From the IMG/VR virus record IMGVR_UViG_3300027844_002282: a DNA stretch of 64,000 nucleotides; one strand, written 5' to 3'. A program made the position numbers and the translations under genes. Source of the stretch: a virus. Positions 4,900-39,002 of the stretch are shown one piece after another. Position 1 is the first letter of the stretch. Each line of letters opens with the position of its first letter. A model generated the notes under the pieces. That model did not search any database. It was not told the DNA's origin and saw only the letters and a list, made by a program, of their open reading frames with translations.

Positions 4900-6125
4900 T
4901 TTATCTCGTGAATATCTCCATTAAAACCATGTGGCGTAACTCCAACAGGTAGATACCTCTTTAAAATCTGAATATCTTCATTTCCAAACTTCAAACCGCT
5001 CAAATCTACGGGTCTCTTCCTTACTATTACGCTTATATTATATCCATACTTTTTTACCCTCGCTAATGAACAGTCGAATCCAGCCAGGATGAGATGCATA
5101 AGGAGTAACCCAGCGTTCCACAAAGATACGTGTCCGCCAACGATCTCGTGTTTTAATGGAGGTACTGTTATGGCTAAGACCCCATCGTCGGTAAGGTCTC
5201 TGTGTATCTTCTTCAAAAATTCATTAGGACTTAATTGGTGTTCGAGAACATGAGAACACCATATACAATCGAACTTCTTGTCGAATTCATGATCACTATA
5301 GTCCCCAACTATATCGGCGTGTTTTCCATGGACATAATCTATAGAGGTAACGTCCTTTCTACACGACTTAAAAGCCGCCTTATGGTTCCCATGTCTACCG
5401 CATCCGATATCAAGTACTGATTTGAACTCGAAGTCGTTGACGAGCTTTGAAATGCATTCGTGAGAATGCATTTCAGTAAAAACAATCGGCTTTCTCTTCG
5501 TAATAATAGCTGCACTGTCAATATCTATTTTCATATCAAGAAACTTTGATATTGTATTCCATTCTTCTTTAGGGAAAGATGTGACATCTTCAAAATTAAC
5601 ATTTAGACAATCAATACCCTGATTGCTTACGTGTTCAACCATTTTATCTCTAAACCCGTTCCATTTTTCTATCCTACCCTTATAGTGCTTCGGGCTCAAC
5701 TTGTTCATCTTAGCCGAAGAAGCGGCTTGGTTGTCAATGTTTCTATGGAGAACGATGACTCTTACATCTACACCTGAATCTTTTAACTCTTTCAAGAATG
5801 GAAGGTCGTATGTTCTATATGATTTAGTCGCTACGACATCTTTGTTTTTATACTGGTTATTTAGGAATTTCTTATAGTCCTTAATATTCTCTTCACCCCT
5901 CTCTATAACACTCTCGATTGGTGGCGGGTTTTCGCAAACAAATAATTTCTTGTATATCTTCTTTATCTTATTTATGTGGGGCTCACTCTCAAAATATCCG
6001 CCTGGATTGAATTTGTCTTCAGTCTTCGTGTCCTTCACGAACGCTCCTGATTTCCTCAAAACCTTCATCATGTATGAAGACCCAATCCTCCCCATCCCAT
6101 ATGTTAATACAATCAATTTCTTCAT
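4890..6125 (-). CDS. sulfotransferase-like domain fused to class I SAM methyltransferase
   Basis: N-terminal GMGRIGSS PAPS-loop and NPGGYFE; C-terminal VLDIGCG, SHVLEH. Confidence 0.8.
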   Translation of the reverse strand: MKKLIVLTYGMGRIGSSYMMKVLRKSGAFVKDTKTEDKFNPGGYFESEPHINKIKKIYKKLFVCENPPPIESVIERGEENIKDYKKFLNNQYKNKDVVATKSYRTYDLPFLKELKDSGVDVRVIVLHRNIDNQAASSAKMNKLSPKHYKGRIEKWNGFRDKMVEHVSNQGIDCLNVNFEDVTSFPKEEWNTISKFLDMKIDIDSAAIITKRKPIVFTEMHSHECISKLVNDFEFKSVLDIGCGRHGNHKAAFKSCRKDVTSIDYVHGKHADIVGDYSDHEFDKKFDCIWCSHVLEHQLSPNEFLKKIHRDLTDDGVLAITVPPLKHEIVGGHVSLWNAGLLLMHLILAGFDCSLARVKKYGYNISVIVRKRPVDLSGLKFGNEDIQILKRYLPVGVTPHGFNGDIHEINWK

Positions 6126-7525
6126 ACCAATTTCTCCAAGAAAGAAGTTTTGTCGTCACTAATGATGATACTTATTTTACCCTTATATTTATCAAGTATG
6201 CTTCTGTACGCTTTTGTTACCCCAGGCCAAGCCTGATTTTTGTAATCGTCAATAGCGATCACTCCGCCCTTAACAACATACGGGAACATCATTCCAAAAT
6301 CAGAATTTACAGCCGCCTCGCTGTGTTCTCCATCTATATACACGAAATTAAATTTTCGCCCTTCTATTTCTTTCTTAAGCTCGCATGAGGGGATGAAAAA
6401 ATGTTTATGGTTGGATAGCTTGGAGATGTGCTCGCAAAATTTTTCTCTAAATTTACCAATATTATTAGCCCCGTCTGTATTTAATCCTCCAGAGGCGAAT
6501 TTATCATTCAGTGGATCACATGAATACAATTCCCAATTTGGGAAAAGTGACATCATCATGTTAGAGATAAAAACAGTCGTCTTCCCAGCCTTCACCCCAA
6601 TCTCACACATATCTCCAACGATGTCTTTTTTCTTAAGCGAGAAAAATATATCTGCCATATCACCCATGACTTGTTTCTGACTTTTTAGATCCTCAACCTT
6701 TTTTGCTTCCCCTATAGCATCCCTAATGATCTTATTTTTCAAAGGTTCTGGGTATACCTCGTTATAGACTTTTCCCTTCTGTCGCCGTTCATTAAGTCTC
6801 TTGAAATGGGGGACATCCATCCAGTTATCTGGCCAGACTTGTGTGGCAGTTTCAATCCTCTTGCAATTCTTAAAATGTAAGTAGCATCTTTTGTCAATTT
6901 TACTCTCAGAAGAAGAATAGTTATTTAAGACTTCGCAGAAATCACCCTGTATATAATAAGACTCCGGGCAAACCTTGAAAACCCTTGGCTCGAATGTCGC
7001 TACCAAGTCTGGACTAAAATGAGAGATGTGATCCCCACTAAGATTTATTCCATGGAAAAACGTCTTCCCAAACTTTTTGTAGTTAGAAAGATCGGCGACC
7101 ATATTTGGCGTGGCTATCATATCACCATCCCACTTACAAACAAAGGATCTACTCGTGAGGGATAAGGACCAATTATAATAGTACGCAAGATCATGTATGG
7201 AGTCTTCTGGAATATCTCTATGACCGGGGCCATTATGATGCATCTTGAAAGGATATTGATATATCTTTATTTTATCAGAGTTAATATTCCTTATAATATT
7301 TTCTGTATTATCTTCCGAGCCATTTAGTGTAACGATTATCTCATCGAAAAACCCAAGTACAGACTGAATACTTGGTAGTATAAACTCTTCTTCGTTCTTT
7401 ATCCTGATCATTGCGGAAATTCCATCTTTCCTATTCTCAAGCCAGTCTTTTTTTATAAAATACTTTTCTACCCCTTCTCTATTTTTAAGATGCATTTTAA
7501 CCTCTATAGAATGGTTCCGAACCAT
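6122..7525 (-). CDS. GT2-like glycosyltransferase fused to Methyltransf_24-type methyltransferase
   Basis: ISAMIRIKNEE, KWDGD (DxD); C-terminal EIGVKAG, YIDGEH, IAIDDY. Confidence 0.8.
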   Translation of the reverse strand: MVRNHSIEVKMHLKNREGVEKYFIKKDWLENRKDGISAMIRIKNEEEFILPSIQSVLGFFDEIIVTLNGSEDNTENIIRNINSDKIKIYQYPFKMHHNGPGHRDIPEDSIHDLAYYYNWSLSLTSRSFVCKWDGDMIATPNMVADLSNYKKFGKTFFHGINLSGDHISHFSPDLVATFEPRVFKVCPESYYIQGDFCEVLNNYSSSESKIDKRCYLHFKNCKRIETATQVWPDNWMDVPHFKRLNERRQKGKVYNEVYPEPLKNKIIRDAIGEAKKVEDLKSQKQVMGDMADIFFSLKKKDIVGDMCEIGVKAGKTTVFISNMMMSLFPNWELYSCDPLNDKFASGGLNTDGANNIGKFREKFCEHISKLSNHKHFFIPSCELKKEIEGRKFNFVYIDGEHSEAAVNSDFGMMFPYVVKGGVIAIDDYKNQAWPGVTKAYRSILDKYKGKISIIISDDKTSFLEKLV

Positions 7526-16866: not shown

Positions 16867-16942
16867 GCGGACATCGTATAAAGGATAATTACCTTTGGCT
16901 TCCACCCAAATGATGTGAGTTCGAGTCTCACTGTTCGCTCCA
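16867..16942 (+). tRNA. tRNA-Gly(TCC)
   Basis: cloverleaf; anticodon arm tttgg-cttccac-ccaaa; TTCGAG; CCA. Confidence 0.9.
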
Positions 16943-16952
16943 ATTTTTTCTT

Positions 16953-17028
16953 GCGGGTATAGTTCAATTGGTAGAGCAATAGGTTTCCAACCTGTCTGTT
17001 GTCGGTTCGAATCCGACTACCCGCTCCA
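16953..17028 (+). tRNA. tRNA-Gly(TCC)
   Basis: cloverleaf; atagg-tttccaa-cctgt; CCA. Confidence 0.92.
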
Positions 17029-17029
17029 C

Positions 17030-17132
17030 TCTTGAAGGGGCTCCCGATTCTGAATATCAATGTAGGTGAGCCAAGTGGCGGATCGTGATTCAGCATGATC
17101 AAGTGGTGCCCAATCACCACCCTTCAAGACCA
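17030..17132 (+). ncRNA. CCA-ended structured RNA of unknown class
   Basis: closing stem tcttgaagg/ccttcaaga followed by CCA; three internal hairpins. Confidence 0.6.
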
Positions 17133-17286
17133 TTTTTAATCACAACTGTTAAAAGGTTATATTATGGTAACGAAATGTATAAAAATAGTGGTGTTGCATG
17201 TTTGCTCTGATCGATCTATCTAATCTAAAATTGCCAGACATATCGACATTTATGGAAATGCACTCGAATAAGATCGAGTCAACGTT

Positions 17287-17443
17287 TAGTATTCTAATTA
17301 ATGAAAAGGAAACCTTTATTTCCCACCAAAAGGAGGATTTTGTGAGAAGCTTTCTTAAAATGACTTGACATCGACCGTTTGTGGTGTATTATAAGCACAT
17401 TGAAACAAACACATCGACATAAAAGTTTTTCGGAACGAAAGGA
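17287..17443 (+). repeat. 157-bp direct repeat copy 2 (promoter of the 17459-19238 cassette)
   Basis: appears identical to 16389-16545. Confidence 0.95.
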
Positions 17444-17458
17444 GAACGATGAGAACAA

Positions 17459-18277
17459 ATGAAAACTTACTGCATAATCGGTGCCTACGAGTATAATGGC
17501 AGTGCTCGTGATGCGATAGTCGAATACTTTTGTATGCAGGGGGTCGATGGCTTGGTTGTCGTTGATCATAGAAGCCAAAGACCGGCTAGCGACGAGATAG
17601 GGAATGCCGATGCTTGGATGTATCTATGCAGTGCTGCCTGTTCTGCTGGGATGGAGGTGATTTTTCAGTATCACGAATTACCGCGAAGCATAGACCAAGG
17701 ACGAATCGAGAAGATCGTGTCTACTGGGTGCGGCAAGATAAGTATCGGGAGCGCAGAAACTACAGAATGGGTCGGCTCTCACGAGTTGGCGGAAGAAAAC
17801 ATTGAGATTGGCAAGCGCATGGGTTTCGAGTGGGTGTGCGGCATAACGCCGAGGACGATCCTAATGGATTTACTTACTCGTAAGCGGAGAGAAGTTCTCG
17901 TCAGGAATAATGTCTTGTGCCTTACCCTTTCTCCCTATATCCTGTGGGGGTATATGTTTGCTGACGAGCGATTCCCCCATCAATGGGAAACCACGCTGGC
18001 GGGAAAGAACCTTCATGTCGAGTACGGTCTCACGCCGGAAAGACTTGCTGACTACGTTGAGCCACTTGACATAATGGCGGGAGTGGGATCACAGGTGGGT
18101 CTTGATGCCGGTAGCGCAGTATATGCCAAGATGTTAAACTTCAAGGGTTTGGTGATCTCGCTGCCGTTCGATCTGACGGGTGTGTTCGACACCTCAGTAA
18201 GAATGTCGCCTCCGGGCAGCTACCCGACTATTTGTGGGAATTTTGAAGAGGGAGGATACAGGAATGCCTATGCGTGA
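17459..18277 (+). CDS. hypothetical protein
   Basis: 272-aa ORF right after the duplicated promoter/RBS; higher GC than flanks. Confidence 0.7.
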   Translation: MKTYCIIGAYEYNGSARDAIVEYFCMQGVDGLVVVDHRSQRPASDEIGNADAWMYLCSAACSAGMEVIFQYHELPRSIDQGRIEKIVSTGCGKISIGSAETTEWVGSHELAEENIEIGKRMGFEWVCGITPRTILMDLLTRKRREVLVRNNVLCLTLSPYILWGYMFADERFPHQWETTLAGKNLHVEYGLTPERLADYVEPLDIMAGVGSQVGLDAGSAVYAKMLNFKGLVISLPFDLTGVFDTSVRMSPPGSYPTICGNFEEGGYRNAYA

Positions 18278-19238
18278 CGGGATCGTGCTGAGATTTATTC
18301 CGGGGGTCACTTATTCTGTCGTCATTTTTCATATTGGTCACATGACCACGATGATGTGCAATTTTCTTTACGCGAAAAAGCATCATGGTATCTGCTATAT
18401 TGCGCCAGAGATAAGTACAATCGGGTTAAACGGAGCGGGGTTTATAAGACCGTACCTGTCGATAAGTGGCTATCGAACAGATACTTCTCTCAGGCTGTTT
18501 GGTAATCTGGGTATCCCGGAAGTACTGATAAGACCGATTCCAACATACTGGGGTGGCTTAGAGCTACGCCAAGAGATGAGTAAAAAACTTCATGCAGAAA
18601 CTGGAGCATCGATTAGCCAAATATTGGATGAATTCCCGAAGGCTGATATCAGTAGTTCGATAGTCGCTGTTTTTGATTTTCTCTTGGGGTCGAATGTCAT
18701 AATTCGCGGTGGTGATTGGAAGGGCATTGTAGATCCCCATATCCGTGCTTCGACTTATGTAGAGACCCATCGAGCGATCCTAAATTATTTAAGAGGGATA
18801 GTCGGTCAAGGTCCGATTACGGAACACTTCGCACCACTAGTTCTTTCGGACGGAGAGAAGATATCCAAGTCAGCCATTGCTGACATGGGAGAAGACCCCG
18901 TAGTAGTATTCCGAGAAGGGGGATGTTCGACGGAAAATGCCCCCGGAATTTCCCCTCTGGCGTATCTGGTATGGATGGCTGGAAAGGTTGGAGAGGATCT
19001 TAGGTCGATTGATGATTTTGTCAATTATTATCAGCTTTTCGACATCGAGGCTGTTCCGGAAGAGCTTGATTTTGTATTGGATGACCTGCTCAATGCCGAC
19101 GAGGTTGTCAAAAAAGCGTTCGGTCATACATCGAGTAGCGGCGATGACTTGGTGAAACACCTTGCTGTTTTCAGCGATGCTTTAGGGGTTAGTCGGGTCG
19201 ATGGCGTTTACGAGGATACTATAATTTGTAATTTTTGA
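18264..19238 (+). CDS. divergent class I aaRS catalytic domain (GluRS/GluQ-like)
   Basis: LRFIPG...FHIGH...CNFLYAKKHHG, IIRGGD, HFAPLVLSDGEKISKS (HIGH and KMSKS equivalents); RBS GGAGG before ATG 18264. Confidence 0.7.
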   Translation: MPMRDGIVLRFIPGVTYSVVIFHIGHMTTMMCNFLYAKKHHGICYIAPEISTIGLNGAGFIRPYLSISGYRTDTSLRLFGNLGIPEVLIRPIPTYWGGLELRQEMSKKLHAETGASISQILDEFPKADISSSIVAVFDFLLGSNVIIRGGDWKGIVDPHIRASTYVETHRAILNYLRGIVGQGPITEHFAPLVLSDGEKISKSAIADMGEDPVVVFREGGCSTENAPGISPLAYLVWMAGKVGEDLRSIDDFVNYYQLFDIEAVPEELDFVLDDLLNADEVVKKAFGHTSSSGDDLVKHLAVFSDALGVSRVDGVYEDTIICNF

Positions 19239-19454
19239 ACTTTTACAGAATGCATGGGATGAGCCTATTTCAAAGGTGGAAATAGAATTGTCCCCTGTGG
19301 AAAATAAGGATGCATCATCTATCCTGATTATAAAATATGCATAAATACTTTGAAAATGTTGGCGAAACCGGAAGTCATGACTCAGTGGAAACCCTCCGGT
19401 AACTCTCACCGACAGAAAACAAGAGAGCAATAGGCCTGGGCGGGAAAAATAGAT

Positions 19455-19532
19455 GCAGACTGTAGTGTTAGTAGCTCAGCACACTTGATTGTGGCTCAAG
19501 TAGGGGCGGTTCGAATCCGCTCAGCCTGCCCA
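19455..19532 (+). tRNA. tRNA-His(GTG)
   Basis: cttga-ttgtggc-tcaag; G-1:C73; CCA. Confidence 0.9.
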
Positions 19533-19549
19533 TCTTTTGCTGTATAATA

Positions 19550-19636
19550 TCCAGTGTAAACCGTAATGGCAGCGGAACGGACTGTTAATCCGTGACATTT
19601 TATGTCCTGTAAGTTCAAGTCTTACCTCTGGAGCCA
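19550..19636 (+). tRNA. tRNA-Asn(GTT), long variable arm
   Basis: acgga-ctgttaa-tccgt; extra hairpin gacat-ttt-atgtc; GCCA end. Confidence 0.88.
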
Positions 19637-19646
19637 ATTTTATAAT

Positions 19647-19721
19647 AGGTCTGTAGCTTAGTTGGAAGAGCTACTGTCTTCTAAGCAGTTGGTCCGGGCT
19701 CGAATCCTGGCAGGAGCGCCA
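19647..19721 (+). tRNA. tRNA-Arg(TCT), weak acceptor stem
   Basis: actgt-cttctaa-gcagt; CCA; acceptor stem has mismatches. Confidence 0.7.
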
Positions 19722-19827
19722 GTCGCTCTATACGTCTCGTACCAAGCCGAGTGCAAACGGTTGGGATGTACCCGCAAGGGAAATTTTGCAACCGGATGGT
19801 ACCCGGCTGGACGAGCGCATTTTATTT

Positions 19828-19904
19828 GCCCCCGTAGTTCAATTGGATAGAGCAATAGTTTTCTAAACTATCTTGTGTAGGTTCGAGTCCTACCGGGGGT
19901 ACCA
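19828..19904 (+). tRNA. tRNA-Arg(TCT)
   Basis: atagt-tttctaa-actat; canonical D and T arms; CCA. Confidence 0.92.
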
Positions 19905-19915
19905 TTTCTCAAAGA

Positions 19916-19989
19916 GGGTCCGAAGCATTAAGGTGAGGCAATGGGTTTTTACCCTATGGAACAGGGATCATTACCCTGCGGGCCTACCA
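19916..19989 (+). tRNA. tRNA-Lys(TTT), non-canonical T-loop
   Basis: atggg-tttttac-cctat; T arm caggg-atcatta-ccctg; CCA. Confidence 0.8.
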
Positions 19990-20003
19990 ATTTTCAAAAC
20001 AGC

Positions 20004-20032
20004 TTGACTTTTTTCAAAAGCAGGTTATAATA
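20004..20032 (+). promoter_or_regulatory. sigma70-type promoter within tRNA array
   Basis: TTGACT ... TATAAT. Confidence 0.75.
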
Positions 20033-20044
20033 CACTTAACAGAT

Positions 20045-20116
20045 GCCTACGTAGCTCAACTGGAAGAGCACTTCGCTACGAAGAGGTTGCAAGTTCAAAC
20101 CTTGCAGTGGGTACCA
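20045..20116 (+). tRNA. tRNA-Arg(ACG), anticodon stem shortened (possibly defective)
   Basis: cttcg-ctacgaa then 3' stem strand missing bases; CCA. Confidence 0.6.
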
Positions 20117-20120
20117 TTTT

Positions 20121-20265
20121 GATAATGTGGCGGAATTGGAATACGCGCCGCTGTAATAGCGGTAGAGAGCAATGGGTTCAACTCCCATTTAAGGTACGGT
20201 TACCGCTTGGCTGTAATAGCTAAGGCAATGTCTCCTTGTGGGTTCGAGACCCATCATTATCATCA
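20121..20265 (+). ncRNA. tRNA-framed RNA with expanded variable region
   Basis: acceptor gataatg/cattatc, Leu-like D arm, T arm gtggg-ttcgaga-cccat; ~75-nt insert. Confidence 0.7.
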
Positions 20266-20275
20266 AAATTTAGAT

Positions 20276-20365
20276 TGCGGGTAAATCGACTGGCGTAGCA
20301 GATAACTGGCTCATAACCAGGGAGGGGCAACCCTTAGGTCGGTTCAATTCCGACACCCGCTACCA
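20276..20365 (+). tRNA. tRNA-Met(CAT), long variable arm, 1:72 mismatch
   Basis: ctgg-ctcataa-ccag; extra hairpin aggg-gcaa-ccct; CCA. Confidence 0.8.
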
Positions 20366-20461
20366 TTTTAACTATGATAAAATATGAAATCAGATAGAGA
20401 TATGGATGTAGAGTATACAAAAACCCAACTCGTTATTTTTGGGATATATGAGATTTAATGT

Positions 20462-20557
20462 TGTGAGGATTGATTGAAAGTACTATGCTTTCATCAGGAA
20501 AACTGTAAAGTTCCATGGACTTAGCGGCTGGAGGTTCGACGCCTTCTCTCACAGCCA
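20462..20557 (+). tRNA. tRNA-Tyr(GTA)-like with hairpin inserted in D-loop
   Basis: acceptor tgtgagg/tctcaca; loop ctgtaaa; T arm ggagg-ttcgacg-ccttc; CCA. Confidence 0.6.
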
Positions 20558-20558
20558 T

Positions 20559-20638
20559 AGCGGAAGAGTGGATGTGGATACATAGACCATACCAGCCTCA
20601 TAAGTTGGAGATTGCAGGTTCGACTCCTGCTTCCGCTA
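20559..20638 (+). tRNA. tRNA-Met(CAT), no encoded CCA
   Basis: agcggaa/ttccgct; ccagc-ctcataa-gttgg; T arm gcagg-ttcgact-cctgc. Confidence 0.82.
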
Positions 20639-20837
20639 GATTAGTATAATGACAAGCCTCCACGTGGCACTAATCGGAAACGAACTAACCCTCGGCTAAT
20701 TTGTCATTAATAATATCCGTAATTATCATCAAATATTTCTTCGCCCCATCGGTCTTGAAATATCCAAAAGAGGAGGTGTCGATAATACACAAGGAAATTC
20801 CATGGTTAATACACGATCCCATTAATTTTCGAATAGG

Positions 20838-20955
20838 TTGTGACTAAGGCCCGGTAAAGCCGGGTGCCGATCACTTACTAAGGCCTCAGCCCGTAAGTGC
20901 CGGGCGGGAACACAGAGGCTCTACCCCCGAAGATAACCAAACTTTGAGTCACAAT
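20838..20955 (+). ncRNA. pseudoknotted structured RNA of unknown class
   Basis: closing stem ttgtgact/agtcacaa, GC hairpins, cacttac complementary to loop gtaagtg. Confidence 0.6.
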
Positions 20956-21121
20956 ACTTTTTCCTTGGAGATAATATGGAAGATAAAATACACCCGCTGG
21001 TTGGACAATCGTTCAAAGTTGAATGGTGGATTCGAATCCCACTTGGTCCACCAATTTATTACAGGGATTTCTTTCGAATAATTAGAAGTATTAGCTCAAC
21101 CCACAACAATAGGAGGGTAAT

Positions 21122-21409
21122 ATGAATAAGAACAAAATCATCGGGACACTAATGGTGGCTCCGTTACCGATTTATCTCGTCTATCTTCTTTTGGCAAAAG
21201 AGATTTTGCCGATTGTCATTTGTCTTGCGGCTGGAGTTGGATTATTCCACTTCGGACTCAAACTTTTGACAGGATCAACACTCGAAGAGGTCGGCGAAGA
21301 TGTTGTCAGACATCTCGACGAGGTTGAGGAAGAAGCAGAAGAAGCAGTTGATAAGATTAAGAAAAAGACAAGGAAGCCAAGGGCGAAGAAGGCTGTTAAA
21401 AAGAGTTGA
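21122..21409 (+). CDS. small membrane protein
   Basis: two hydrophobic helices, basic tail, RBS GGAGG; AGG-N19-GAA motif at 21063. Confidence 0.7.
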   Translation: MNKNKIIGTLMVAPLPIYLVYLLLAKEILPIVICLAAGVGLFHFGLKLLTGSTLEEVGEDVVRHLDEVEEEAEEAVDKIKKKTRKPRAKKAVKKS

Positions 21410-21532
21410 CGGATAGGGTATGTTAAAATGACCGACGACCATTCTTCCCCACGGGGAAGTAGCTATTACATACGTTGAGGGATTGGATACGAGACCAATA
21501 CGTGAGTTTCACAAGATGGCAAGTCAATTTTT

Positions 21533-21609
21533 GGATCGGTGGCGCAATTAGGTAGCACAGCAGACTTTTAATCTGTGGGTTGTGGGTTCGATTCCCACCC
21601 GATTCACCA
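21533..21609 (+). tRNA. tRNA-Lys(TTT)
   Basis: gcaga-cttttaa-tctgt; CCA. Confidence 0.92.
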
Positions 21610-21700
21610 GCTTGATTGACAGGGTCTCGCAGACCGTACCAATAACAAAAGCAAATATCTTAATCTATGCCACCTGACATTTTATTTTTACGAGGAGCCA

Positions 21701-22009
21701 ATGAATAATTTAACGGAAGAAAAAATATTTGACGAGTTAAGACCAATATTAGACCCTGATCTTGGAATAAGCATTGTAGATATGGGTTTGATATATAAAG
21801 CCAAGATAAATGGAGATCATGTTGATGTTGAAATGACATTAACATCTATTGGATGTCCATATGGTCCATATTTAATATCTGAAGTAACAGAAACAGTCAA
21901 AAATATTGATAGTATTAAAACGGTAAATGTAGAACTCGTTTGGGAACCACCTTGGTCGATTGAAAATTTGTCAGACGAAGTTAAATTAGATATTGGAATA
22001 GACATCTAA
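21701..22009 (+). CDS. DUF59/SufT-family metal-sulfur cluster assembly factor
   Basis: DPDLGISIVDMGLIY, MTLTSIGCP, VELVWEPPW. Confidence 0.92.
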   Translation: MNNLTEEKIFDELRPILDPDLGISIVDMGLIYKAKINGDHVDVEMTLTSIGCPYGPYLISEVTETVKNIDSIKTVNVELVWEPPWSIENLSDEVKLDIGIDI

Positions 22010-22069
22010 ACCGGTTGCAAGTTCGATTCTTGCCTGGAGAGATAATTTTCAACAAGGGTATTTTTATTT

Positions 22070-22148
22070 GGCCTTAGCTCATGTTGTGGCTTAGAGCGCC
22101 TGTTTTGCAAGCAGGAGGTAGTGGGTTCGATGCCCACAGGGGCCACCA
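22070..22148 (+). tRNA. tRNA-Ala(TGC)
   Basis: cctgt-tttgcaa-gcagg; CCA. Confidence 0.85.
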
Positions 22149-22156
22149 ATTTTTAC

Positions 22157-22561
22157 TTAAAGTCCAGCCAATCCCCTAAATAAACGCATGGCACCAATTC
22201 TATCACCCGCGAAATTACCCTTTTGGTCATCTGGGCCAACAAAAAACCAGTAATCTCTGAATCTGTCGGTTGCAATTTCACCGAGGATCTTCCTGATCTG
22301 GGTGTGAGAGATATCTTGAGAAAAGGTCGCCTCAAAATTTTCCGCGAAGAATGTCAACCTACACCAGCCACTTGCGATAGCATTATAGCCAAGGGTGAGA
22401 CTGTCAAAGGGCATTGGAAACGATTCAGAACCAATCTCGTCTTCAGAAAGGTATTCTGCTAAAGCTTTCTCATGTCCCTGGAAATCATTTACGGGGACTT
22501 CTCCACCATCAGGGTCTATCCATAACCCATAAGCCCCTTGAGATTTTTTGTACCAATTCAT
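22157..22561 (-). CDS. hypothetical protein with MNWYKK leader
   Basis: 134-aa ORF starting MNWYKKSQ. Confidence 0.7.
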   Translation of the reverse strand: MNWYKKSQGAYGLWIDPDGGEVPVNDFQGHEKALAEYLSEDEIGSESFPMPFDSLTLGYNAIASGWCRLTFFAENFEATFSQDISHTQIRKILGEIATDRFRDYWFFVGPDDQKGNFAGDRIGAMRLFRGLAGL

Positions 22562-23303
22562 ATTTTGTCCATATCAAAATTTCTATGCTCAGTTGGGGAA
22601 ACGCCGGAGCGCGTAACTCCGCCCCTCTGGGCTCCTTTTCAACGAAGAGTAAGCATTAAAGAGGTACTGTCACAATTAGATGTACAATAAACTCAGTCCA
22701 CATCCCTCTCATATAACAATGACAGCATCGAGGTAAATATATGAAAAACTATGAAGAAATGAGCTGCGAAGAGCTTCGCCAAAACAGGAAAAAATAGTAT
22801 GGGGCTACTTAGCGCTATTTGTAAAGGTTGCAAGAAAAATATTGAACATTTTAGTTTCGACAATGACATCACCTGTAGAGGATGCGGAATTATAAATGCT
22901 TCAAGTGAAATTCAGCTTTCGACCTTAAGCTACGGAAAGGGACGTGAAGACGGAAAAGACTCATCATCCAGATGGCTTAAATCTTGGATGAACAATAGAG
23001 AAAAACATAATTCATTAGAAGATTGGTATAATGCACTATATAGTATTGTTTACAAAACCAAAAAGTCGCCGCCAAAATTCAAAACTAAAATATCCCTACA
23101 CGCATCAAACCTTCTTTTAAATATGGCAAGGCTTAAGAAAGAGGGGATGGGCGACGAGAAACACGACTATATGTGCGAAAAGATTTGCGATGTTATAATA
23201 GACGCAGAAGATTGGGAAAAAGAACATGATATAGAATCATAGTGGGAATAAATGGTGACAACATGACAAAAAGAATCGTAGTAACGAACAAGAGATAATC
23301 ATA

Positions 23304-24030
23304 ATGCAATGGGACTCAGTATACATGCCAAACTCAGCTTATCCCCCGCACGTTGGACATGCGGCAATGATCTTACACGCAAGAGCGAGCTTTCTCTACA
23401 CAAAATTTTATTTAGAATCTTATAACACGCCTGGAATCGATCTTAGATGGGGGGTCGTTCATGATGTTCGCTCAACACCAGAGTTTGAAAAAATGCAGGT
23501 TGATCTTATGAATTGGATGGGATACCCACCGGAATTTGAATTGCGACTAAATGAATATGGGAATTTTCAAGCCGACGTGATGTGCATGTTGTTAAAGATG
23601 GAAATTCGAGAGGCCGATTTCAAAAGCCTTGAAATTGGGAAGTTTATGGTTCTAAACTCAGTAAGAACTCACATAAGGGGGGTGGGACCTTGTTCCGTTA
23701 GAAAAAGTAGAGAGGCCATTGGCGGGCGCTTTTGGATTCGGCTACCCAACAATAAGATACGCCCCATTATTATTAGACAATAATGGCGAAAAGATATGCT
23801 CTAGTAAAAGCGAGCATAAAAAGTTTCAACTAACTCAAGTAACTATGGATTCAAATGGGCCAGACAGTCTGATTGAAAAGCTATTAAAATGCCACTGCCC
23901 TGACGCGGAACATGTGAGAGGCGAAGACCCTGACGAAATAGCGATCAGATGGTGTAGAAAACTATGGACGCATTACCATGGATTAGCTTGTCTTGGACAG
24001 CCAATGACGCCAATAAAATTTAACTTATAA
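23304..24030 (+). pseudogene. second divergent GluRS/GluQ-like domain, split by a frameshift
   Basis: PHVGH and HIRG in 23304..23783; YAPLLLDNNGEKICSSK in overlapping frame 23719..24030. Confidence 0.55.
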
Positions 24031-24033
24031 AAT

Positions 24034-24110
24034 GCCGATGAAACATTTATATGGATGATGTCCTGTCTTGTAAGCAGGTTAACTCGGATCGTTACCGAGC
24101 TTCGGCTCCA
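24034..24110 (+). tRNA. tRNA-Thr(TGT)
   Basis: cctgt-cttgtaa-gcagg; T arm ctcgg-atcgtta-ccgag; CCA. Confidence 0.85.
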
Positions 24111-24111
24111 A

Positions 24112-24603
24112 TTACGTCTTCAAACCGCCAGGAGCGTTTTGTTGATCAAAGTATTGAGTGACAGCACCCTGGTCAAAGTACCCCAGTTCCCCAAGATACT
24201 TCTCAACATCCAGGGAAGGGGCGAATACGCTTTTGAAATAAGTGCGTAGTTTTGGAATCACCTCACTTGGCATAAAGAGCCCGCTTCTGTTCATATCAAC
24301 AATGTGTATTTGAACCTGTTTGGTCCCTCTCGGATACAACGCTTCCCCTGCGTATGGGATAAGCCACATCTGAAGATACCCCAGACGAACATTCGTAGGG
24401 GCGAAAACCTGGATTTCAACAAGACTCCTGTCAGATCTATTTTCGACCCTTGATTTCACCTCAAGACCAAAAAACTCTTGAACTATATTAACAGCCCCGG
24501 CCTCTGCGGCCTGAACGTCTGCATCGTCCAAAGCCAATTTCTTGTCCAAAACAGATCTTACTTTCTGTTGAAGGGCATCATTATCGTCTGCATAAATTCT
24601 CAT
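24112..24603 (-). CDS. hypothetical protein
   Basis: 163-aa ORF preceded by AGG-N19-GTA motif (24644-24668). Confidence 0.65.
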   Translation of the reverse strand: MRIYADDNDALQQKVRSVLDKKLALDDADVQAAEAGAVNIVQEFFGLEVKSRVENRSDRSLVEIQVFAPTNVRLGYLQMWLIPYAGEALYPRGTKQVQIHIVDMNRSGLFMPSEVIPKLRTYFKSVFAPSLDVEKYLGELGYFDQGAVTQYFDQQNAPGGLKT

Positions 24604-24679
24604 GAAAATAACCTAATATGTAAAATTAACTTGTTTTTTCATATACGCGGTTACATTGCAGATATCCTTTTTCAATCTA

Positions 24680-24744
24680 TACATTGGTGGCGCAACAGGC
24701 TCTTAATCTGAAGGTTGCGGGTTCGATTACCGCCCGATGCACCA
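24680..24744 (+). pseudogene. tRNA-Lys(CTT) with deleted D arm
   Basis: cagg-ctcttaa-tctg, T arm and CCA intact; D arm truncated. Confidence 0.65.
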
Positions 24745-25056
24745 ATTACTCAAGGCCGAGCATCTCTTTTGCTCTCTCGTCAGTGATCAAGCCTGATTCA
24801 AAAGACTTAAAGATTTGCTCGAAAGAGAAACCGTCTTTGTAAATACGGCCAATCTCGTAAGCCTCGTTCCCATGCGGAACGGTAATTACAGCAGTGGCAG
24901 CCTGGGCGGCACCTAATTGCTTTTCGACTCTGGCCTTTTCTGACTCAAGGTCTTGGACGGAAGCGGGTGAATTTTGAGAGCCAACAGTAACGACAAATAA
25001 TCTTTTACTCATAATCAAACTCCTGTGGTTAGGTTAAAATATATTATACATCACAT

Positions 25057-25136
25057 GGACGCATAGCTTAGTCTGGCTAAAGCGCTTGTATGACACATGC
25101 AAGAGATCGTTGGTTCGAATCCAACTGTGTTCACCA
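25057..25136 (+). tRNA. tRNA-Val(GAC)-like with 9-nt anticodon loop
   Basis: cttgt-atgacacat-gcaag; canonical D and T arms; CCA. Confidence 0.7.
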
Positions 25137-25713
25137 AACTTAAAAATATTAATAGAAGGTCATATTATGGGTAAACATCACGAATGTAAAATTACAAAAC
25201 TAAAAGACCAGGAATTTTTCAAGAAAGATAATCCACACTATGGAAGGTCTCGCAGAATTTATAAGCAAGAATTCCACAGCCTTTGACCCAGATGATAAGA
25301 AAAAGCTAAAGCTATGGGCGGAAGAAGAGTTCGCGAGGCAAGAAAGGGCGTTAACAACTTGATATCAATAAGTAGTTAAAAGGATCTTAGTTAAAATCTA
25401 AAGAAATAGCCTATGGAGGCTATAAAATGGATGCTGACGAAAAAGATTTACAGAAAAGTCTTGGGATTGAAAACATAGATGAAGAAGATGAACTTCAGGA
25501 CGTGATAGGGAGAGAGGGGAAGATCGTTGAGGCGGACTTCCTGATTACGCAAATAATAATGCTACAATCCATCCTTAGAAGGGACTACTCTATCGACGAA
25601 AGAGAAATTAGGAAAAGGTCTTCCGTACTATGTAGAAGGTCCAATTTCGAATATTTATCAGATATTGTTAGAGAAATTGAATCCTTAAGAATAAGACATG
25701 ACAAGAAAAATAC

Positions 25714-25781
25714 GGCGGGATAGCTCAACTGGAAGAGCACTTGTTTCATACGCAAGAGGTTGGGGGGCGGTTCCGCCACCA
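25714..25781 (+). pseudogene. degenerate tRNA(CAT)
   Basis: D arm and cttgt-ttcatac-gcaag intact; T arm collapsed; CCA. Confidence 0.6.
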
Positions 25782-27272
25782 ATTTCCCACAACGACTTGA
25801 AAACAACGATAACAGTGCTATGTTATCTCATAACCTGCTTAAGGAAAAATCATGAATCATTACATCGAAGTGTTGATCAAACAAGAGATTGGGAAATTTG
25901 TCGAGGAAGAATTGAGAGGTAGATATAGAGATTACGTCTCAGACATCTTCTTGACTTCAATCTTATTGAATCGTATGAATGACAGCCATCATCATGGCGG
26001 CATATCAAGAGGTTAGTACTTTTTCGAGGACGACCACAACGCCACCGTTTTTTTACGAAGCATCTTGCTGTATCTTTGAATCGATCTTATAGTATGGTTG
26101 CAAAGTTGGCGGGAATGGCCATCACGTTGCCCAGAACTTTTATTCATACATGAAGATAAGATTGCATGGAGTGACAAGGGAAATCGCTATTAAAAAGGGC
26201 GAGACTATAGAAAGGGGTTATAATTAGCGCTCTTGAAGGAGAACTTAGTAAAAATCTCATAGAAGCCCGTGTCCCCCATTTGGCTGCGGCGATAAGAGAC
26301 ATGGAAGGTTGCCCTAATGGAGATCTAAAGTGTTCAAGGTGCAAAGCTGAAGGTGCGTCAAACAACAGACAACGCACCGCATATGCAAATCCAGACAATA
26401 TGGCAATTTATTGCCCATCATGTCAAGAAGAAGCGGACGCTTATTGGAAAGAGCAATGGGATGAATATTACGGTGCAATATTATAACTCGTAACCAGGAA
26501 GACATTATGACAATTTATAGAAGAACAATGGAAATTTCTAACAAAGAGTTGAGCAATGGCCAATGGGAAATTTTTAACAAAAAGAATATTGAATTTATTG
26601 CTCTGGCGCTAAGGAGCGACAAGTGGACATCAATTGATAATTTATCAAAAGACATTGGGCTCTATAGAAAAGCTCATAAAGAGCCAGAAATAACTCAAGA
26701 AGAGATCATCGTAGCGTTAGAAAGTTTAATATTGCACGACATGGCGGAGTGCAAAGAGTCCGAATAATACAACGAGAGGGAAGTATGGAAGATATGAAAT
26801 GGGAAATTGAGCCTCACAAACTAAGTCCGTGTCCTGGAGACTATGGTGAAATAATAGGGAACGTTAACCAAATGGAATATAATGGTAAAGAAATCCCATG
26901 GATACAGGATGTTCATTTATTGGTTGGCCAGCTACCCACATTTGAAAAAGAGATGAAATACGCGGTATTTCATGATTGCGTAGTAAAGTTAGACCGGAAC
27001 ACGTGCAAAAGTAAGCTAATGCCAGTTTATGAGGTGATCTCCAAAAGAAGGCCCATAGACACAAACGGTGAGGGAAACGAGTCTACTTACAAAGAGATGG
27101 AGATATTTCTTATGTCATGTCATCTTGACGCAAGAAGGACCTTGGCCTGCAATGTTCTCAAAGAGCTTGGTTGTGATTATGTAACTATGATTAGAAGGTT
27201 GGGTCCAACAATGATCGGCCCGCCAAACGGCTTTATTTATGAAGAATTAGCAATCGTTGGTCAATAATATAT

Positions 27273-27346
27273 GCTCTTGTGGTGAAAAGGAATCATTTCT
27301 CTTTCCTAAAGAGATGTTGCGGGTTCAAGTCCTGCCGGGAGTACCA
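27273..27346 (+). tRNA. tRNA-Arg(CCT)
   Basis: tctct-ttcctaa-agaga; CCA. Confidence 0.9.
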
Positions 27347-28781
27347 ATATAGTCCAAATATGATCCTCTCACCAATCTTGTTTATCAAAGATTATTTTGA
27401 AGGAATCGCATACGGACCTCCGAGAAAGTATAAAGCGAACATGAAATTAGTTTGTAATGACATCTATAGTTTAATAGGGGCCAGAGCATTTTCAATTTTA
27501 TAGAACAGGTAAAAAGAACAAACAGCAGGTATAGGTATGAATATCGAAAAAAATTTTTATATAACGATGTCCAATTCGGCGTAGAGGTCTTAGTACCAAG
27601 TTACCATACCATAGATAAAAACGCCATAAATAACGCGATAATAAAACTTGTAATGACTGGAGTGAAAAACATCAGTGTTGTAAAGTCTGGAGGCCAGGTC
27701 GGAATCATGGGATCAGAAAAAGAAATAACACCATGGTCTATATTTGGGGGAAGGGAATGAAAAAGAGTTCATTAATCCTGTTTATACTAATGACCATGGA
27801 GGCATTCTCATTTGAACCAAGGATGCAGGCCGAAGTCAGAACATACACTCCAGAGCACCTGGTTCCAAAAAAAGCAACAATTGAGCTTCTCGATGGCACT
27901 AAGATAATCGGAACTATAGAAGACAAAGATGGGAAATACATTATCAAATCCGAATCTGCCGGTGAAATAATCATAGAAAAAGACGAGGCGAAAATTATTG
28001 AATATAAGGAACGGGTTGTAAAGAAGAAAAGCGAGGGGAAAAAAACAATCAGTGATCTACAACAAATGATGCTTTCAGACCCAGACTTGATCAATGAAAT
28101 CATTCTTAGGTTCGCCACTGATAAAGATTTTCTTGATGTTATATCAGACCCAGAAGTAATAAAACATATCCAAGATTTTAATCTATTGGAGCTTCTTACA
28201 AATCCGAAAATACAGGCTCTTACCGAAAAGGAAAGCATTAAAGATTTTACCAAAAAAGTCACTGAATAATTATGGTCGAAGATGAAAAAGAATTACAAGG
28301 AATGATTGGACCTAACGGCGGGCCAGATATCCTATTTATAAGAAAATCTGAGACTCTTGATAGCATAGTCACAGAATACGAGTGGCCAAACGGATCTTCT
28401 TTCAGACTGGGATTCTCAGAACAGGGAGTCCGTGGGGATATTTATTGCGCGGACAGAAGTGGCGGTGTTAAAATGGGAATAGTAGACGACTCAGGAGGGT
28501 TTACTGTCCCAACATACTATTGTCATAAAATAAATATGCCAGTAATAATTAACGAATTGGCTATGCGTAGCTGTCGTAATATTTACATACTTAGAAAGGG
28601 CTCAGAACTTGGCGTGTTTGGCGGAAACATAGAACTTGATCTTTCTAAACCAGACAGGGGCTAAAGACTAATGCTAAGTAGAGAGTTCCTGTTAGATTTA
28701 GAAAAATGTTGTGGCAGCGGATGCTTTAACTGCCCATATGACCCAAGGCACACGAGAGGGTCAGAAAAAATTTCAAAAGAC

Positions 28782-28857
28782 GCCCCTGTAGTTCAATCGG
28801 AAGAACAGTTGCCTTCGAAGCAATCGCGTCCGGGTTCGAATCCTGGCAGGGGTACCA
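28782..28857 (+). tRNA. tRNA-Arg(TCG)
   Basis: gttgc-cttcgaa-gcaat; CCA. Confidence 0.92.
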
Positions 28858-28977
28858 ATAACGATTAATCTGGATTAGGGAGCCAGTTGAATGCCAACTT
28901 CCCAAGGACGGGCGTTGAGGAATCCTCAATAGCTCTTACGAGAGCGAATCCTTGTTAAAAACACGTCGCCATTTTAC

Positions 28978-29242
28978 GTCGATGTAGGCGAGAGGAATAG
29001 CCATCGTAAACACGGAAATGAAGTCCCTAACGGGAGTATGAGAAGATATATCTCGGTAATATAGCTGCGTTGTGGCGTTCCCGGTATACGTCTTTTGGTA
29101 TAAAGGTTGTAAATGAGCTTCTAAGGCGACCTGGAAAAGCGAAGAGTGGAACCAGGTGGGTATAAGTAACCTGCCTTATTGATGCCCGTGACCTAACAGT
29201 ACCGTTCATACCACGTCGATTCAAGTCCGACCATCGACACCA
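28978..29242 (+). ncRNA. 265-nt tRNA-framed RNA with ~190-nt insertion
   Basis: acceptor gtcgatg/catcgac-A-CCA; D arm taggcgagaggaatagcca; T arm gtcga-ttcaagt-ccgac. Confidence 0.75.
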
Positions 29243-29272
29243 ATTATGTAGAACCAAAAACGTAGAGAATTT

Positions 29273-29359
29273 GCATCGGTGACCGAATTGGCTGAAGGTA
29301 TCAGACTTTTAATCTGAAGAGCTAAGGCTCCACTGGGGGTTCGAATCCCTCCCGATGTA
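29273..29359 (+). tRNA. tRNA-Lys(TTT), long variable arm, no encoded CCA
   Basis: tcaga-cttttaa-tctga; extra hairpin gagc-taag-gctc. Confidence 0.88.
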
Positions 29360-29911
29360 AATGTGAAACCATAACCAATAAAGAACAACTAATAGATAAC
29401 AATAAATAGAATAACATAATCATAACTCAAAAAAAGGGGGGCGCATGAGTTGGTGGAAATTTTGGTCTAAGACCAAAAATTATAGGGTGTCGGGAGCGGA
29501 AGTGATTGAAGAAAAATGGCCAAGTGACAGGCTAATAATTATAAGAAAAAACAAGGGCGAATCAGTGATCTATTTGAAAGACACTAAGACCCCAGTAATA
29601 GCAAGAAACGATGATAATGATTACATTTTAATACCAAAATTTGAAGTGGGTAAACCATATCTAAAACTGAAAGATCTCGCATACAAAATAGCAAAATTCG
29701 GAATCTATACACACATACACATTTTCAACATAGACGGGAGTACGGTAGCGGTGGTGGGAACCGTTAGAAAAATCGGGTTAGCTAAGGAGTTTTATAGCAT
29801 AAGAGATAGCTCAAGCGCACATAATATTAACAAATATGTATAAAAGGGCTTGACTTTTCCCAATACCGAGCATATATTATCAACCAACGTACAATCAACA
29901 AGAGGTGAACC

Positions 29912-32210: not shown

Positions 32211-32450
32211 TACGCCCTCTTATGATTGGGTTGTGTTTTGTTATGTTGTGATTATGTTACTTATTTTTAGTAATACTCCTTCATAGAGCTTGCAAAACCA
32301 GTAATTAACGGTATAATATCACTGTTATGAACGCCATCCAGCCCGGAACGGCTGAGATGATAGGAAAAGCCCCGGACTGAACACTGGGGCATTTTCTATT
32401 TTAGGGCTTGACAAATGGGAAACACGAACTATTGTTATGTATTAACAATT

Positions 32451-32646
32451 TCTTTTAGGCCGACTCGTCGCTGGTTAAACCAGAGGAAAGTCAGGACTAC
32501 ACTTCTTAAGGTAGGACGGAAAACCGGATAGCACTACCGAGGTAGCAACGCAAACAGGCTGAGTGTGTGAGAAGCACTGTGAAGCCGGGTAGCGGCAAAG
32601 ATTAATGACGAGGTTGAAACAAAATCCTGCTTACGAGCCTAAAAGA
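32451..32646 (+). ncRNA. rnpB: RNase P RNA, minimal (~196 nt)
   Basis: P1 tcttttaggc/gcctaaaaga; P2 ctcgtcg/tgacgag; CR-I GAGGAAAGTC; CR-V ACAAAATCCTGCTTA; P4 pairing cagga/tcctg; upstream TTGACA promoter. Confidence 0.85.
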
Positions 32647-32959
32647 TTAATTATTGGTTAAAAAATGGAATGTCTAAATCAAAATAAAACTCACAAACGA
32701 GGTGAAGAATTGGAGAAACCAAGCAAAGTGAAGATGGTCATACGTTTCTTGATATTTTTTGCTATATCATTCCTTTTAATCGAAGGAATAGAGCATATTC
32801 TTCATGAGGTCTTCGATATACACATGCACGGCTGGTTTTCTTGGGGCGGACTTGGGGTTATCATCTTATTTGGATTTAAATTTCACATGATTTGTTGCGT
32901 CATTCCCTCAATCATCGCGGCAATCCTCTGCATTAAGAAGCGCCACAAACATTGCGACC

Positions 32960-33418
32960 ATGATCATTGCAAGAATGGGGCCCAGGATGAAAAACAGCCA
33001 TAAGACTGCGAAATCGAGAGATAAGGCCTCTGCCCCCGCACGATGGCTCAATAGAAAGTATTTATTAGTTGATAGATGCTTAGACTATGGGTGCGGTGCG
33101 GTAAGGGCACAGACGCTGATGAATTGTCAATGCACCGATATGATCCACATTTTTTCCCGACCTCACCAGAAGGTTTATATGACACGATTACATGCACTTA
33201 TGTATTAAATGCAGTTAGCGAGGAAGAGGGGGGCGGAAATCATCATCAAAATAAGAGGGCTCCTTAAGGATAGCGGTGTAGCATATATAACTGTCAGGAG
33301 AGACGTAAAAGAAGATGGTTGGACAAGAAGGAGTACATTTCAGAGGAATGTCATTTTGGATGAAGAATCATTAATTGACAATTCCAGTTTCTGCATTTAC
33401 AAAATAAATAAGGAGTAG
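32960..33418 (+). pseudogene. class I SAM methyltransferase, frameshifted
   Basis: LDYGCG, YDPHF, YDTITCTYVLN and AYITVRRD spread over three frames. Confidence 0.7.
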
Positions 33419-38292: not shown

Positions 38293-38997
38293 GGGGACGT
38301 AACAGGTATTCGACTAGAATGGTAGAATATCAATTGCATGTCGAGGATGACTGTTGGCCTCGTTAAACATCAGTTAAAAAACATAAAAGCGAACAACGAA
38401 GAAATCCTTCAGTTCCCTGGTCTTGATGCAGGTTTTGCAGCACCAGTAGAGGCTCCGGCCTTTGCAATCGCTGCCTAATTAGTTGACAGACTAACTCGGC
38501 CTTAATTGAGCCGAGCGCTTAACGGATGGACCCTTGATAAATCCGTAAGCGACAAAAATCGAGGAAAGCGCTTGATACTGACTCACCTGAGTTGAGAGTG
38601 AAAGTTTTAGGTGATCGTCATACTGCCAGTTGGTGTTAATACCTGCGAATGTAATACGGCACAGACTAAAAGATAGCAAAATTAACTATACATGTAGACG
38701 TTGATATAAAGTTGTTTTAGGACGCGGGTTCGATCAAATTGGTCGCCATGAGAAGTGATTCTCATTGGAAACTGAGAGCTTTCACGGTGAAAGCTAAGTT
38801 GAGTAATCAATATGCCAACGCCGTATGGTGAATCTGAAAAGAGGAAGCCATCTAGAGACTTATAGAGTCCTAAGGTATTTATACTATGGATCACTAGGAT
38901 GGGTAAAACCATAACACGCTCTCCCCTGACTTGTCAGGTGAAGAAATAGTCCTTGCCAGGTGAAAGTCTGGGTGTACAAGCCCCGCCGTCTCCACCA
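38293..38997 (+). ncRNA. ssrA: tmRNA (intron-containing); tag ANNEEILQFPGLDAGFAAPVEAPAFAIAA at 38389-38478
   Basis: GGGGAC...TCGAC 5' end; G3:U acceptor with gtctccACCA 3' end; tag ends IAA; T arm split. Confidence 0.93.
38735..38980 (+). mobile_element. group I intron in tmRNA T-loop
   Basis: 5' exon ends in U with P1 cgat/gtcg (U-G pair); R element AGAGACT, S element AAGAAATAGTCC; terminal G; splicing restores gcggg-ttcgatc-cccgc. Confidence 0.88.
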
Positions 38998-39002
38998 ATA
39001 TG

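Follow-up and report, generated by a model that had tools for sequence, protein, structure and literature searches.

A half-size RNase P RNA homologue of bacterial type A descent in a phage genome, with relatives on phages and bacterial tRNA arrays

Introduction

RNase P RNA is traditionally regarded as a housekeeping ribozyme of cells and organelles that each genome encodes in a single essential copy; the M1 RNA of E. coli, encoded by rnpB, is ~377 nt long and is the essential single copy of the cell. In full-size RNase P RNAs the specificity domain (S-domain), P7–P14 with CR-II/CR-III, recognizes the T-loop/D-loop, and the P18 loop docks on P8. In bacterial holoenzymes the P protein is contacted by P2–P4, J18/2 and J2/4. 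The archaeal type T RNA, by comparison, is the only RNase P RNA of its organism and works with Pop5, Rpp30 and Rpp29.

Type T combines an archaeal-type catalytic domain (C-domain) with a 3-bp P2, a 2-nt linker between P5 and P15 and a shortened P15, and its P10 either closes with a small loop or is missing (PMC3579882). On the bacterial side, a C-domain engineered from E. coli (Eco CP RPR in Mao et al. 2018) cleaves whether or not the C5 protein is present; a P6-like interaction is needed, P18 brings no benefit once the S-domain has been removed, and C-domain-only constructs are less efficient than the full-size RNA (PMC5839562). Translation RNAs, in the form of tRNA arrays and tmRNA, are carried by huge phages (Al-Shayeb et al. 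2020, PMC7162821), and tRNA array units have been described in bacteria and on plasmids (PMC5966550, PMC8421152). RNase P is not mentioned in any of these last three papers (0 occurrences), nor do the DLP6 genome paper and an rnpB-annotation paper mention an RNA of the kind described here. The openly searchable full-text literature yielded no account of an RNase P RNA that is viral or linked to tRNA arrays, and we found neither an Rfam family nor a publication devoted to a mini RNase P RNA.

The RNA analysed here is encoded in a 64-kb stretch of DNA (the window) from IMG/VR record IMGVR_UViG_3300027844_002282. It shares with bacterial type A (RF00010) the topology of the C-domain, P1, a 6-bp P2, P3, the bulged U of P4, P5, the P6–L17 interaction, P15–P17, the GGU of L15, the CAA linker, CR-I and CR-V, whereas it is half the size and lacks P8–P14 (CR-II/CR-III) and P18. 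It also differs in being an accessory RNA of phages and tRNA-array islands, accompanied by a full-size rnpB in those host genomes that could be examined. Judged by its 6-bp P2, 3-nt CAA linker, P6, P16 and P17 and the L15 GGU, the window RNA is of bacterial type A descent.

A preliminary description, made from the letters of the window, had likened the RNA to archaeal type T. As an analogy this is fair: both are natural RNase P RNAs of ~200 nt that keep the catalytic domain and have lost most of the S-domain, and the stub left in the window RNA is comparable. Membership of type T does not hold, given the 6-bp P2, the 3-nt linker and the bacterial L15, P16, P17 and P6 of the window RNA. The two differ in core type, and the reduction of the S-domain is therefore independent and convergent. 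Eco CP RPR is likewise a bacterial type A RNA minus its S-domain, and its inventory recurs in the phage RNA, with P6 kept and P18 lost; in contrast to this laboratory construct, the phage RNA is natural and selected, retains P7 together with a stub hairpin, and has a predicted activity. Its genomic neighbourhood is that of the huge-phage translation RNAs, with the same logic of a phage-owned translation apparatus, and that of the bacterial and plasmid tRNA array units.

Results

Identification of the RNA

A permissive Rfam scan of 32250-32850 identified 32451-32646 (+) as a match to RF00010, the bacterial class A RNase P RNA, with 63.9 bits and an E-value of 3.7e-19 over model positions 1-367. 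The alignment borders are 32452-32649, the match is the only strong one within the scanned interval, and RF00010 is the best model of the RNase P clan for this RNA. The proposal of a minimal phage RNase P RNA of ~196 nt from which most of the S-domain is gone, which the preliminary description had offered together with a search against the Rfam RNase P models as a check, is thus borne out by an end-to-end match, and the ends that it had given are exact.

The score remains below the gathering score of RF00010 (100 bits) because P8–P14 and P18 are missing. About 140 consensus positions of the S-domain correspond to 39 nt in the window RNA, and the 24 model positions of P18 correspond to 0 nt. 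At Rfam gathering thresholds the 64-kb window yields 17 tRNAs and a tmRNA, with no RNase P reported. Below the gathering score and without S-domain and P18, the window RNA is not a regular member of RF00010. Related RNAs (see below) reach 33–57 bits with RF00010, and some of them score best with archaeal or type B models; all family members that were scored against Rfam fall under its thresholds and have therefore been overlooked by routine annotation.

Secondary structure of the window RNA

Each helix of the window RNA was written out and its pairs were verified by script; the coordinates are collected in Table 1 with those of the surrounding features. P1, P2, P3, CR-I, CR-V and P4, all claimed in the preliminary description, lie exactly where it had placed them. 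P5, the P6 pseudoknot, P15–P17 and the L15 GGU are present as well and had not been listed there; nor had the loss of P18, which is gone from the window RNA together with its docking partner P8. The ~70 nt that had been assigned to the position of the S-domain have to be corrected to 41 nt between the P5 strands (32501-32541), of which 29 nt are the S-domain proper. In the ACAGAA motif of J2/4, the window RNA has an A where 90% of the family has a G.

Table 1. Features of the window RNA and of its surroundings (positions in the window)
Feature	Position	Strand	Remarks
tRNA array, 17 dispersed genes on the same strand, likely substrates	16867-29360	+	15/17 encode 3'-CCA
Sigma-70-like promoter, TTGACA, 16 nt, TATTGT	32408-32435	+	10/12 consensus matches
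Mini RNase P RNA gene, 196 nt, P1 5' end to P1 3' end	32451-32646	+	RF00010, helix check, covariation
P1, 10 bp	32451-32460 / 32637-32646	+	compensatory changes in 10/10 pairs
P2, 6 bp	32464-32469 / 32607-32612	+	compensatory changes in 5/6 pairs
P3 hairpin	32471-32483	+	compensatory changes in 5/5 pairs
CR-I, GAGGAAAGUC	32483-32492	+	RF00010 alignment, helix check
P4, AAG and CAGGA around bulged U32491, with UCCUGCUU	32488-32490 and 32492-32496 / 32625-32632	+	
P5 5' strand, P6 5' strand and J6/7	32497-32509	+	
P5	32497-32500 / 32542-32545	+	99% paired in family
P6 pseudoknot, CUUC with GAAG in P17 loop	32502-32505 / 32571-32574	+	100% paired
S-domain proper, whole remnant (P7 and stub hairpin), 29 nt	32510-32538	+	
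P7	32510-32514 / 32534-32538	+	encloses stub hairpin and 7-nt linker
3-bp stub hairpin inside P7	32517-32526	+	
Region J7/5 through P15 3' strand	32539-32594	+	helix check, covariation
J5/15, CAA	32546-32548	+	3-nt linker
P15	32549-32551 / 32592-32594	+	99% paired in family
P16	32557-32560 / 32583-32586	+	93% paired in family
P17	32565-32567 / 32575-32577	+	80% paired in family
L15 3' side, GGGUA with GGU motif	32587-32591	+	
12-nt joiner at the position of P18	32595-32606	+	
J2/4 and P4 3' strand (CR-V)	32613-32632	+	
tmRNA gene, split, complete, possible further substrate	38294-38998	+	~245-nt insert in T-loop
ORF resembling CCA-adding enzyme, 532 aa	59648-61246	-	PolyA_pol head, RNA-binding and HD domains

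Across the family the loop of the stub is unconserved, measuring 4–7 nt in most members and carrying inserts of 15–100 nt in others. S-domain elements were sought in the members with inserts of 50–100 nt, and their Rfam scores were not higher. Because the stub loop is unconserved and the Rfam scores stay flat in the longer members, the comparison indicates that no conserved module for reading the T-loop/D-loop elbow is left in the family.

Relatives in phages, metagenomes and bacteria

A blastn search against deposited phages recovered diverged copies in LR756502 (642 kb) and LR756511 (595 kb). Both are huge phages from PMC7162821 and are found here to carry the mini RNA. The flanks of the RNA in the window gave no blastn match among deposited phages, and neither did three other family members used as queries; blastn is too weak for this RNA. 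Three DNA patterns taken from the alignment of the window with LR756502 were rejected, as they retrieved nothing or hit coding DNA by chance. Another pattern, drawn from the conserved 3' half and too tight to admit a P18 helix, yielded 44 IMG/VR loci; in nearly all of them CR-I lies 99–250 nt upstream of the pattern match.

The window sequence also served as the sole source of a covariance model, R1, which contains nested helices only and from which P4 and P6 were deliberately omitted. R1 matched 33 out of 40 viral loci (IMG/VR and phage) with 23–146 bits, at least 54 out of 80 metagenome loci and 31 out of 80 loci of cellular assemblies. In five of five complete or large phage genomes there was exactly one match per genome. 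No match at E<=1 was obtained on 585 kb of unrelated viral control DNA, consisting of the loci that the rejected DNA patterns had retrieved.

The cultured Stenotrophomonas phage DLP6 carries a copy at KU682439.2 105773-106021 (R1 45.7 bits; RF00010 54.7 bits), situated in an unannotated gap 4 nt ahead of a tRNA-Arg gene. Bacterial copies of ~220 nt were found in metagenome-assembled genomes (MAGs) of Gemmataceae and other Planctomycetia, in an Opitutaceae MAG and in the isolate Achromobacter anxifer LMG 26857 (NZ_CAHLAR010000005.1), where the mini RNA at 6075-6298 lies inside an array of 32 tRNAs in 8 kb. A. anxifer LMG 26857 also has a full-size rnpB (202 bits), and such a gene (202–226 bits) is present beside the mini RNA in three of the five bacterial genomes. 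The mini RNA is an accessory copy, since a normal full-size rnpB coexists with it in these three; it is linked to tRNA arrays and is not strictly viral.

Weak R1 matches (24–35 bits, ~181–209 nt) were also seen in WOR-3, uncultured-bacterium and Euryarchaeota/Methanomicrobia MAGs. They may represent other kinds of short RNase P RNA or natively reduced forms.

Covariation and conservation

In an alignment of 33 sequences, 95.8% of the cells are standard pairs, as compared to 63.6% in shuffles and 31–44% with slid partners, and both partners have changed in 52 out of 55 pairs. P5, P6, P15, P16 and P17 each contain compensatory changes. The cleanest helices of the alignment are P4 and P6, although both are absent from R1: P6 is 100% paired with 4/4 pairs covarying, while pairing in P4 reaches 98%, and 7/8 of its pairs have compensatory changes. 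The preliminary description had singled out covariation in P4 as a test of its reading, and that covariation is strong. Between the window RNA and its nearest relative, we counted 22 compensatory changes and 2 broken pairs, and the unpaired columns are 79% identical, as compared to 56% for the paired ones.

At least 90% of the sequences conserve CR-I, AGGAA, the bulged U of P4 and the GCAAC block of J5/15, none of which is forced by the retrieval pattern. GGUAG, AGA..AAUG and ACARAA are part of that pattern, and their conservation is partly by construction; the L15 GGU is also required by it, so that the family-wide conservation of this motif is not independent.

With these data, we regard it as virtually certain that 32451-32646 is a structurally selected RNase P RNA homologue. 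Its sequence and helices are most likely those of a miniaturised RNase P RNA gene that consists of a complete catalytic domain and a 29-nt P7 stub.

Genomic setting

The window is phage DNA, as indicated by a gene for the large terminase (phrog_2, 1.4e-24), and it also has genes resembling a CCA-adding enzyme, a PRPP synthetase and others. The mini RNA is isolated in the window, 3.1 kb past the last tRNA. In 20 out of 29 family loci it is surrounded by a same-strand tRNA array, and the adjoining tRNA is often only 1–10 nt away; the ends of the mini RNA would be set by tRNA processing in such arrays. The tRNAs of the relatives are ordinary and were called by ARAGORN without trouble.

T-loops of the ordinary GTTCRANYC type are present in 13 of the 17 window tRNAs. 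Four low-scoring tRNA-like genes on the (+) strand (19651-19713, 19916-19986, 24681-24741 and 25714-25778) have aberrant arms, namely a T-loop AUCAUUA, a very short T arm, a molecule of 61 nt and a C in place of T54; three of these four still encode 3'-CCA. A further tRNA, at 29273-29359 (87 nt, anticodon UUU), has a long variable arm. The tmRNA gene was missed by ARAGORN, and its Rfam alignment lacks the acceptor ends. Its 5' acceptor GGGGACG is at 38294, the 5' half of the T-arm ends at 38736, and the 3' end (...GUCUCCACCA) lies at ~38981-38998; the insert gives a weak match to the group I intron model (RF00028, 23 bits, E 7.7e-4).

The promoter listed in Table 1 would start transcription ~6–9 nt ahead of P1; it is a consensus match of a kind that shuffled sequence yields equally often. 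No terminator that would define the 3' end of the transcript was found downstream of the mini RNA gene. Upstream, at 32290-32400 (+), lies what appears to be a separate small unit, with a promoter TTGCAA, 16 nt, TATAAT (32290-32317, +), a predicted transcript of ~75 nt with a 17-codon ORF, and a predicted intrinsic terminator at 32369-32390 followed by a T tract; the sole Rfam signal in this unit is Thr_leader at chance level (16.7 bits, E 1.8). Directly downstream, the ORF 32665-33003 (+) encodes a predicted small membrane protein of 112 aa with a His/Cys-rich tail (HKHCDHDHC) and no Pfam match. This ORF is similar in size to RnpA, and an assignment as RnpA was rejected in view of its His/Cys-rich membrane character.

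Possible protein partner and anchoring of 3'-CCA

No RnpA was detected in the window, either by tblastn with the RnpA of LR756502 or by Pfam scans of 20 ORFs. Among ten carrier genomes, PF00825 is credible in one, LR756502 (52 bits), and the other nine are without RnpA. The RnpA-family ORF of LR756502.1 lies at 525189-525473 (+) in a 131-aa frame, 89 kb from the mini RNA, and it is possible from these two sequences that LR756502 encodes a complete RNase P holoenzyme of its own. With nine of ten carriers lacking the protein, most must use a host protein or none, and the mini RNA probably makes use of host RnpA.

The presence of 3'-CCA in 15/17 tRNA genes of the window fits an anchoring of the substrate by the L15 GGU. 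Among the carriers, CCA encoding is all-or-none per phage, for which reason it was rejected as a family rule, and pairing of L15 with CCA therefore cannot be the general substrate hold. The ORF at 59648-61246 is a candidate for a second tRNA-maturation function in the window, judging from its domains. It is present although most window tRNA genes already encode CCA.

Discussion

Proposed function and alternatives

From the observed fold, conservation and association with tRNA arrays we infer catalysis, a protein partner and substrates. The RNA of the window would be transcribed from its own promoter, whereas in most relatives it would be cut out of the tRNA-array transcript. It would then fold into the P1–P4 core with the P6 pseudoknot as a brace, and would probably bind host RnpA through the retained P2–P4, J18/2 and J2/4 region. 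A pre-tRNA would be held by its acceptor stem and, in the window phage, by pairing of the L15 GGU with the encoded 3'-CCA, and the 5' leaders of the phage's own tRNA precursors, perhaps also of the tmRNA precursor, would be cleaved. The net effect would be an added, or a host-independent, tRNA-processing capacity during infection.

We consider it likely that the mini RNA is an active tRNA-processing ribozyme of this kind. The setting in phage tRNA arrays, the conservation of catalytic residues, the CCA-bearing tRNAs and the candidate CCA-adding enzyme of the window, the RnpA of LR756502 and the published activity of the engineered E. coli C-domain, with its matching inventory, all support this reading. 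It is weakened by the lower efficiency of C-domain-only constructs, the lack of RnpA in 9/10 carriers, the missing terminator, the A for G in J2/4 and the all-or-none pattern of CCA encoding.

A trivial origin, in which the phage has picked up a host rnpB fragment that is now decaying, or in which the resemblance is due to chance, would agree with a score under the Rfam gathering threshold and with a plain minimum free energy (MFE) fold whose stability does not significantly exceed that of shuffles (z = -1.49). A weak MFE result is what one would expect, however, because the two pseudoknots are invisible to a plain fold, and compensatory changes keep every helix over more than 30 divergent sequences, with one copy per genome and zero false positives in the control search; we therefore see hardly any chance for such an origin. 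Alternatively, the RNA might not be an enzyme: as a decoy, it would tie up the host RNase P protein or compete with host RNase P, and so damp the maturation of host tRNAs. The regions that contact the P protein (P2–P4, J18/2 and J2/4) are kept, catalysis would suffer from the missing S-domain (PMC5839562), and most carriers are without RnpA, all of which suits a decoy. Protein binding alone, however, does not need the conserved residues of catalysis and docking, namely the bulged U of P4, the CR-I adenosines, the GCAA of J5/15 and P6; the L15 GGU is also kept, though it is required by the retrieval pattern. Moreover, the gene lies among tRNA genes of the phage itself, and these depend on RNase P, and the RnpA supplied by LR756502 would be senseless for a sponge, all of which makes a decoy quite improbable.

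A different specificity of an active ribozyme is harder to dismiss, and we still regard it as unlikely. The mini RNA would then act mainly on substrates that host RNase P handles poorly, such as phage tRNAs whose T or D arms are aberrant, precursors that contain introns, the precursor of the tmRNA, or phage transcripts other than tRNAs. The four aberrant tRNA-like genes and the intron-split tmRNA gene of the window would be targets of this type, and the conserved module that reads the T-loop is gone. The preliminary description had gone in this direction and had seen in the S-domain loss a fit to odd tRNAs, which we find unsupported: 13/17 window T-loops are ordinary, the relatives sit among ordinary tRNAs, and in bacterial genomes with ordinary tRNA arrays the mini copy is found beside a full-size rnpB. 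The mini RNA may nevertheless tolerate odd tRNA elbows.

Significance

The mini RNA and the tRNA array may together form a self-contained, horizontally mobile module of tRNA supply, borne by large phages, proviruses and bacterial tRNA-array islands. Such a module would let its carrier mature its tRNAs even with the RNase P of the host saturated, switched off or under attack, and, lacking a domain that reads the elbow, may work with the RnpA of any host or with none, and on deviant tRNAs. We put this forward as a tentative idea that has less in its favour than against it. If true, it would represent both the first RNase P of a virus and a naturally occurring ribozyme of bacterial type that consists of nothing but the C-domain.

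Among its members, the family counts a phage–host pair in culture, DLP6 and S. maltophilia D1571. It would offer a natural case of a bacterial catalytic domain without a specificity domain, so far represented only by engineered constructs, and the mini RNA could help to explain how the dense tRNA arrays of large phages are expressed. With a conserved half-size RNase P RNA on mobile tRNA islands and viruses, ribozyme biology would come to include phages.
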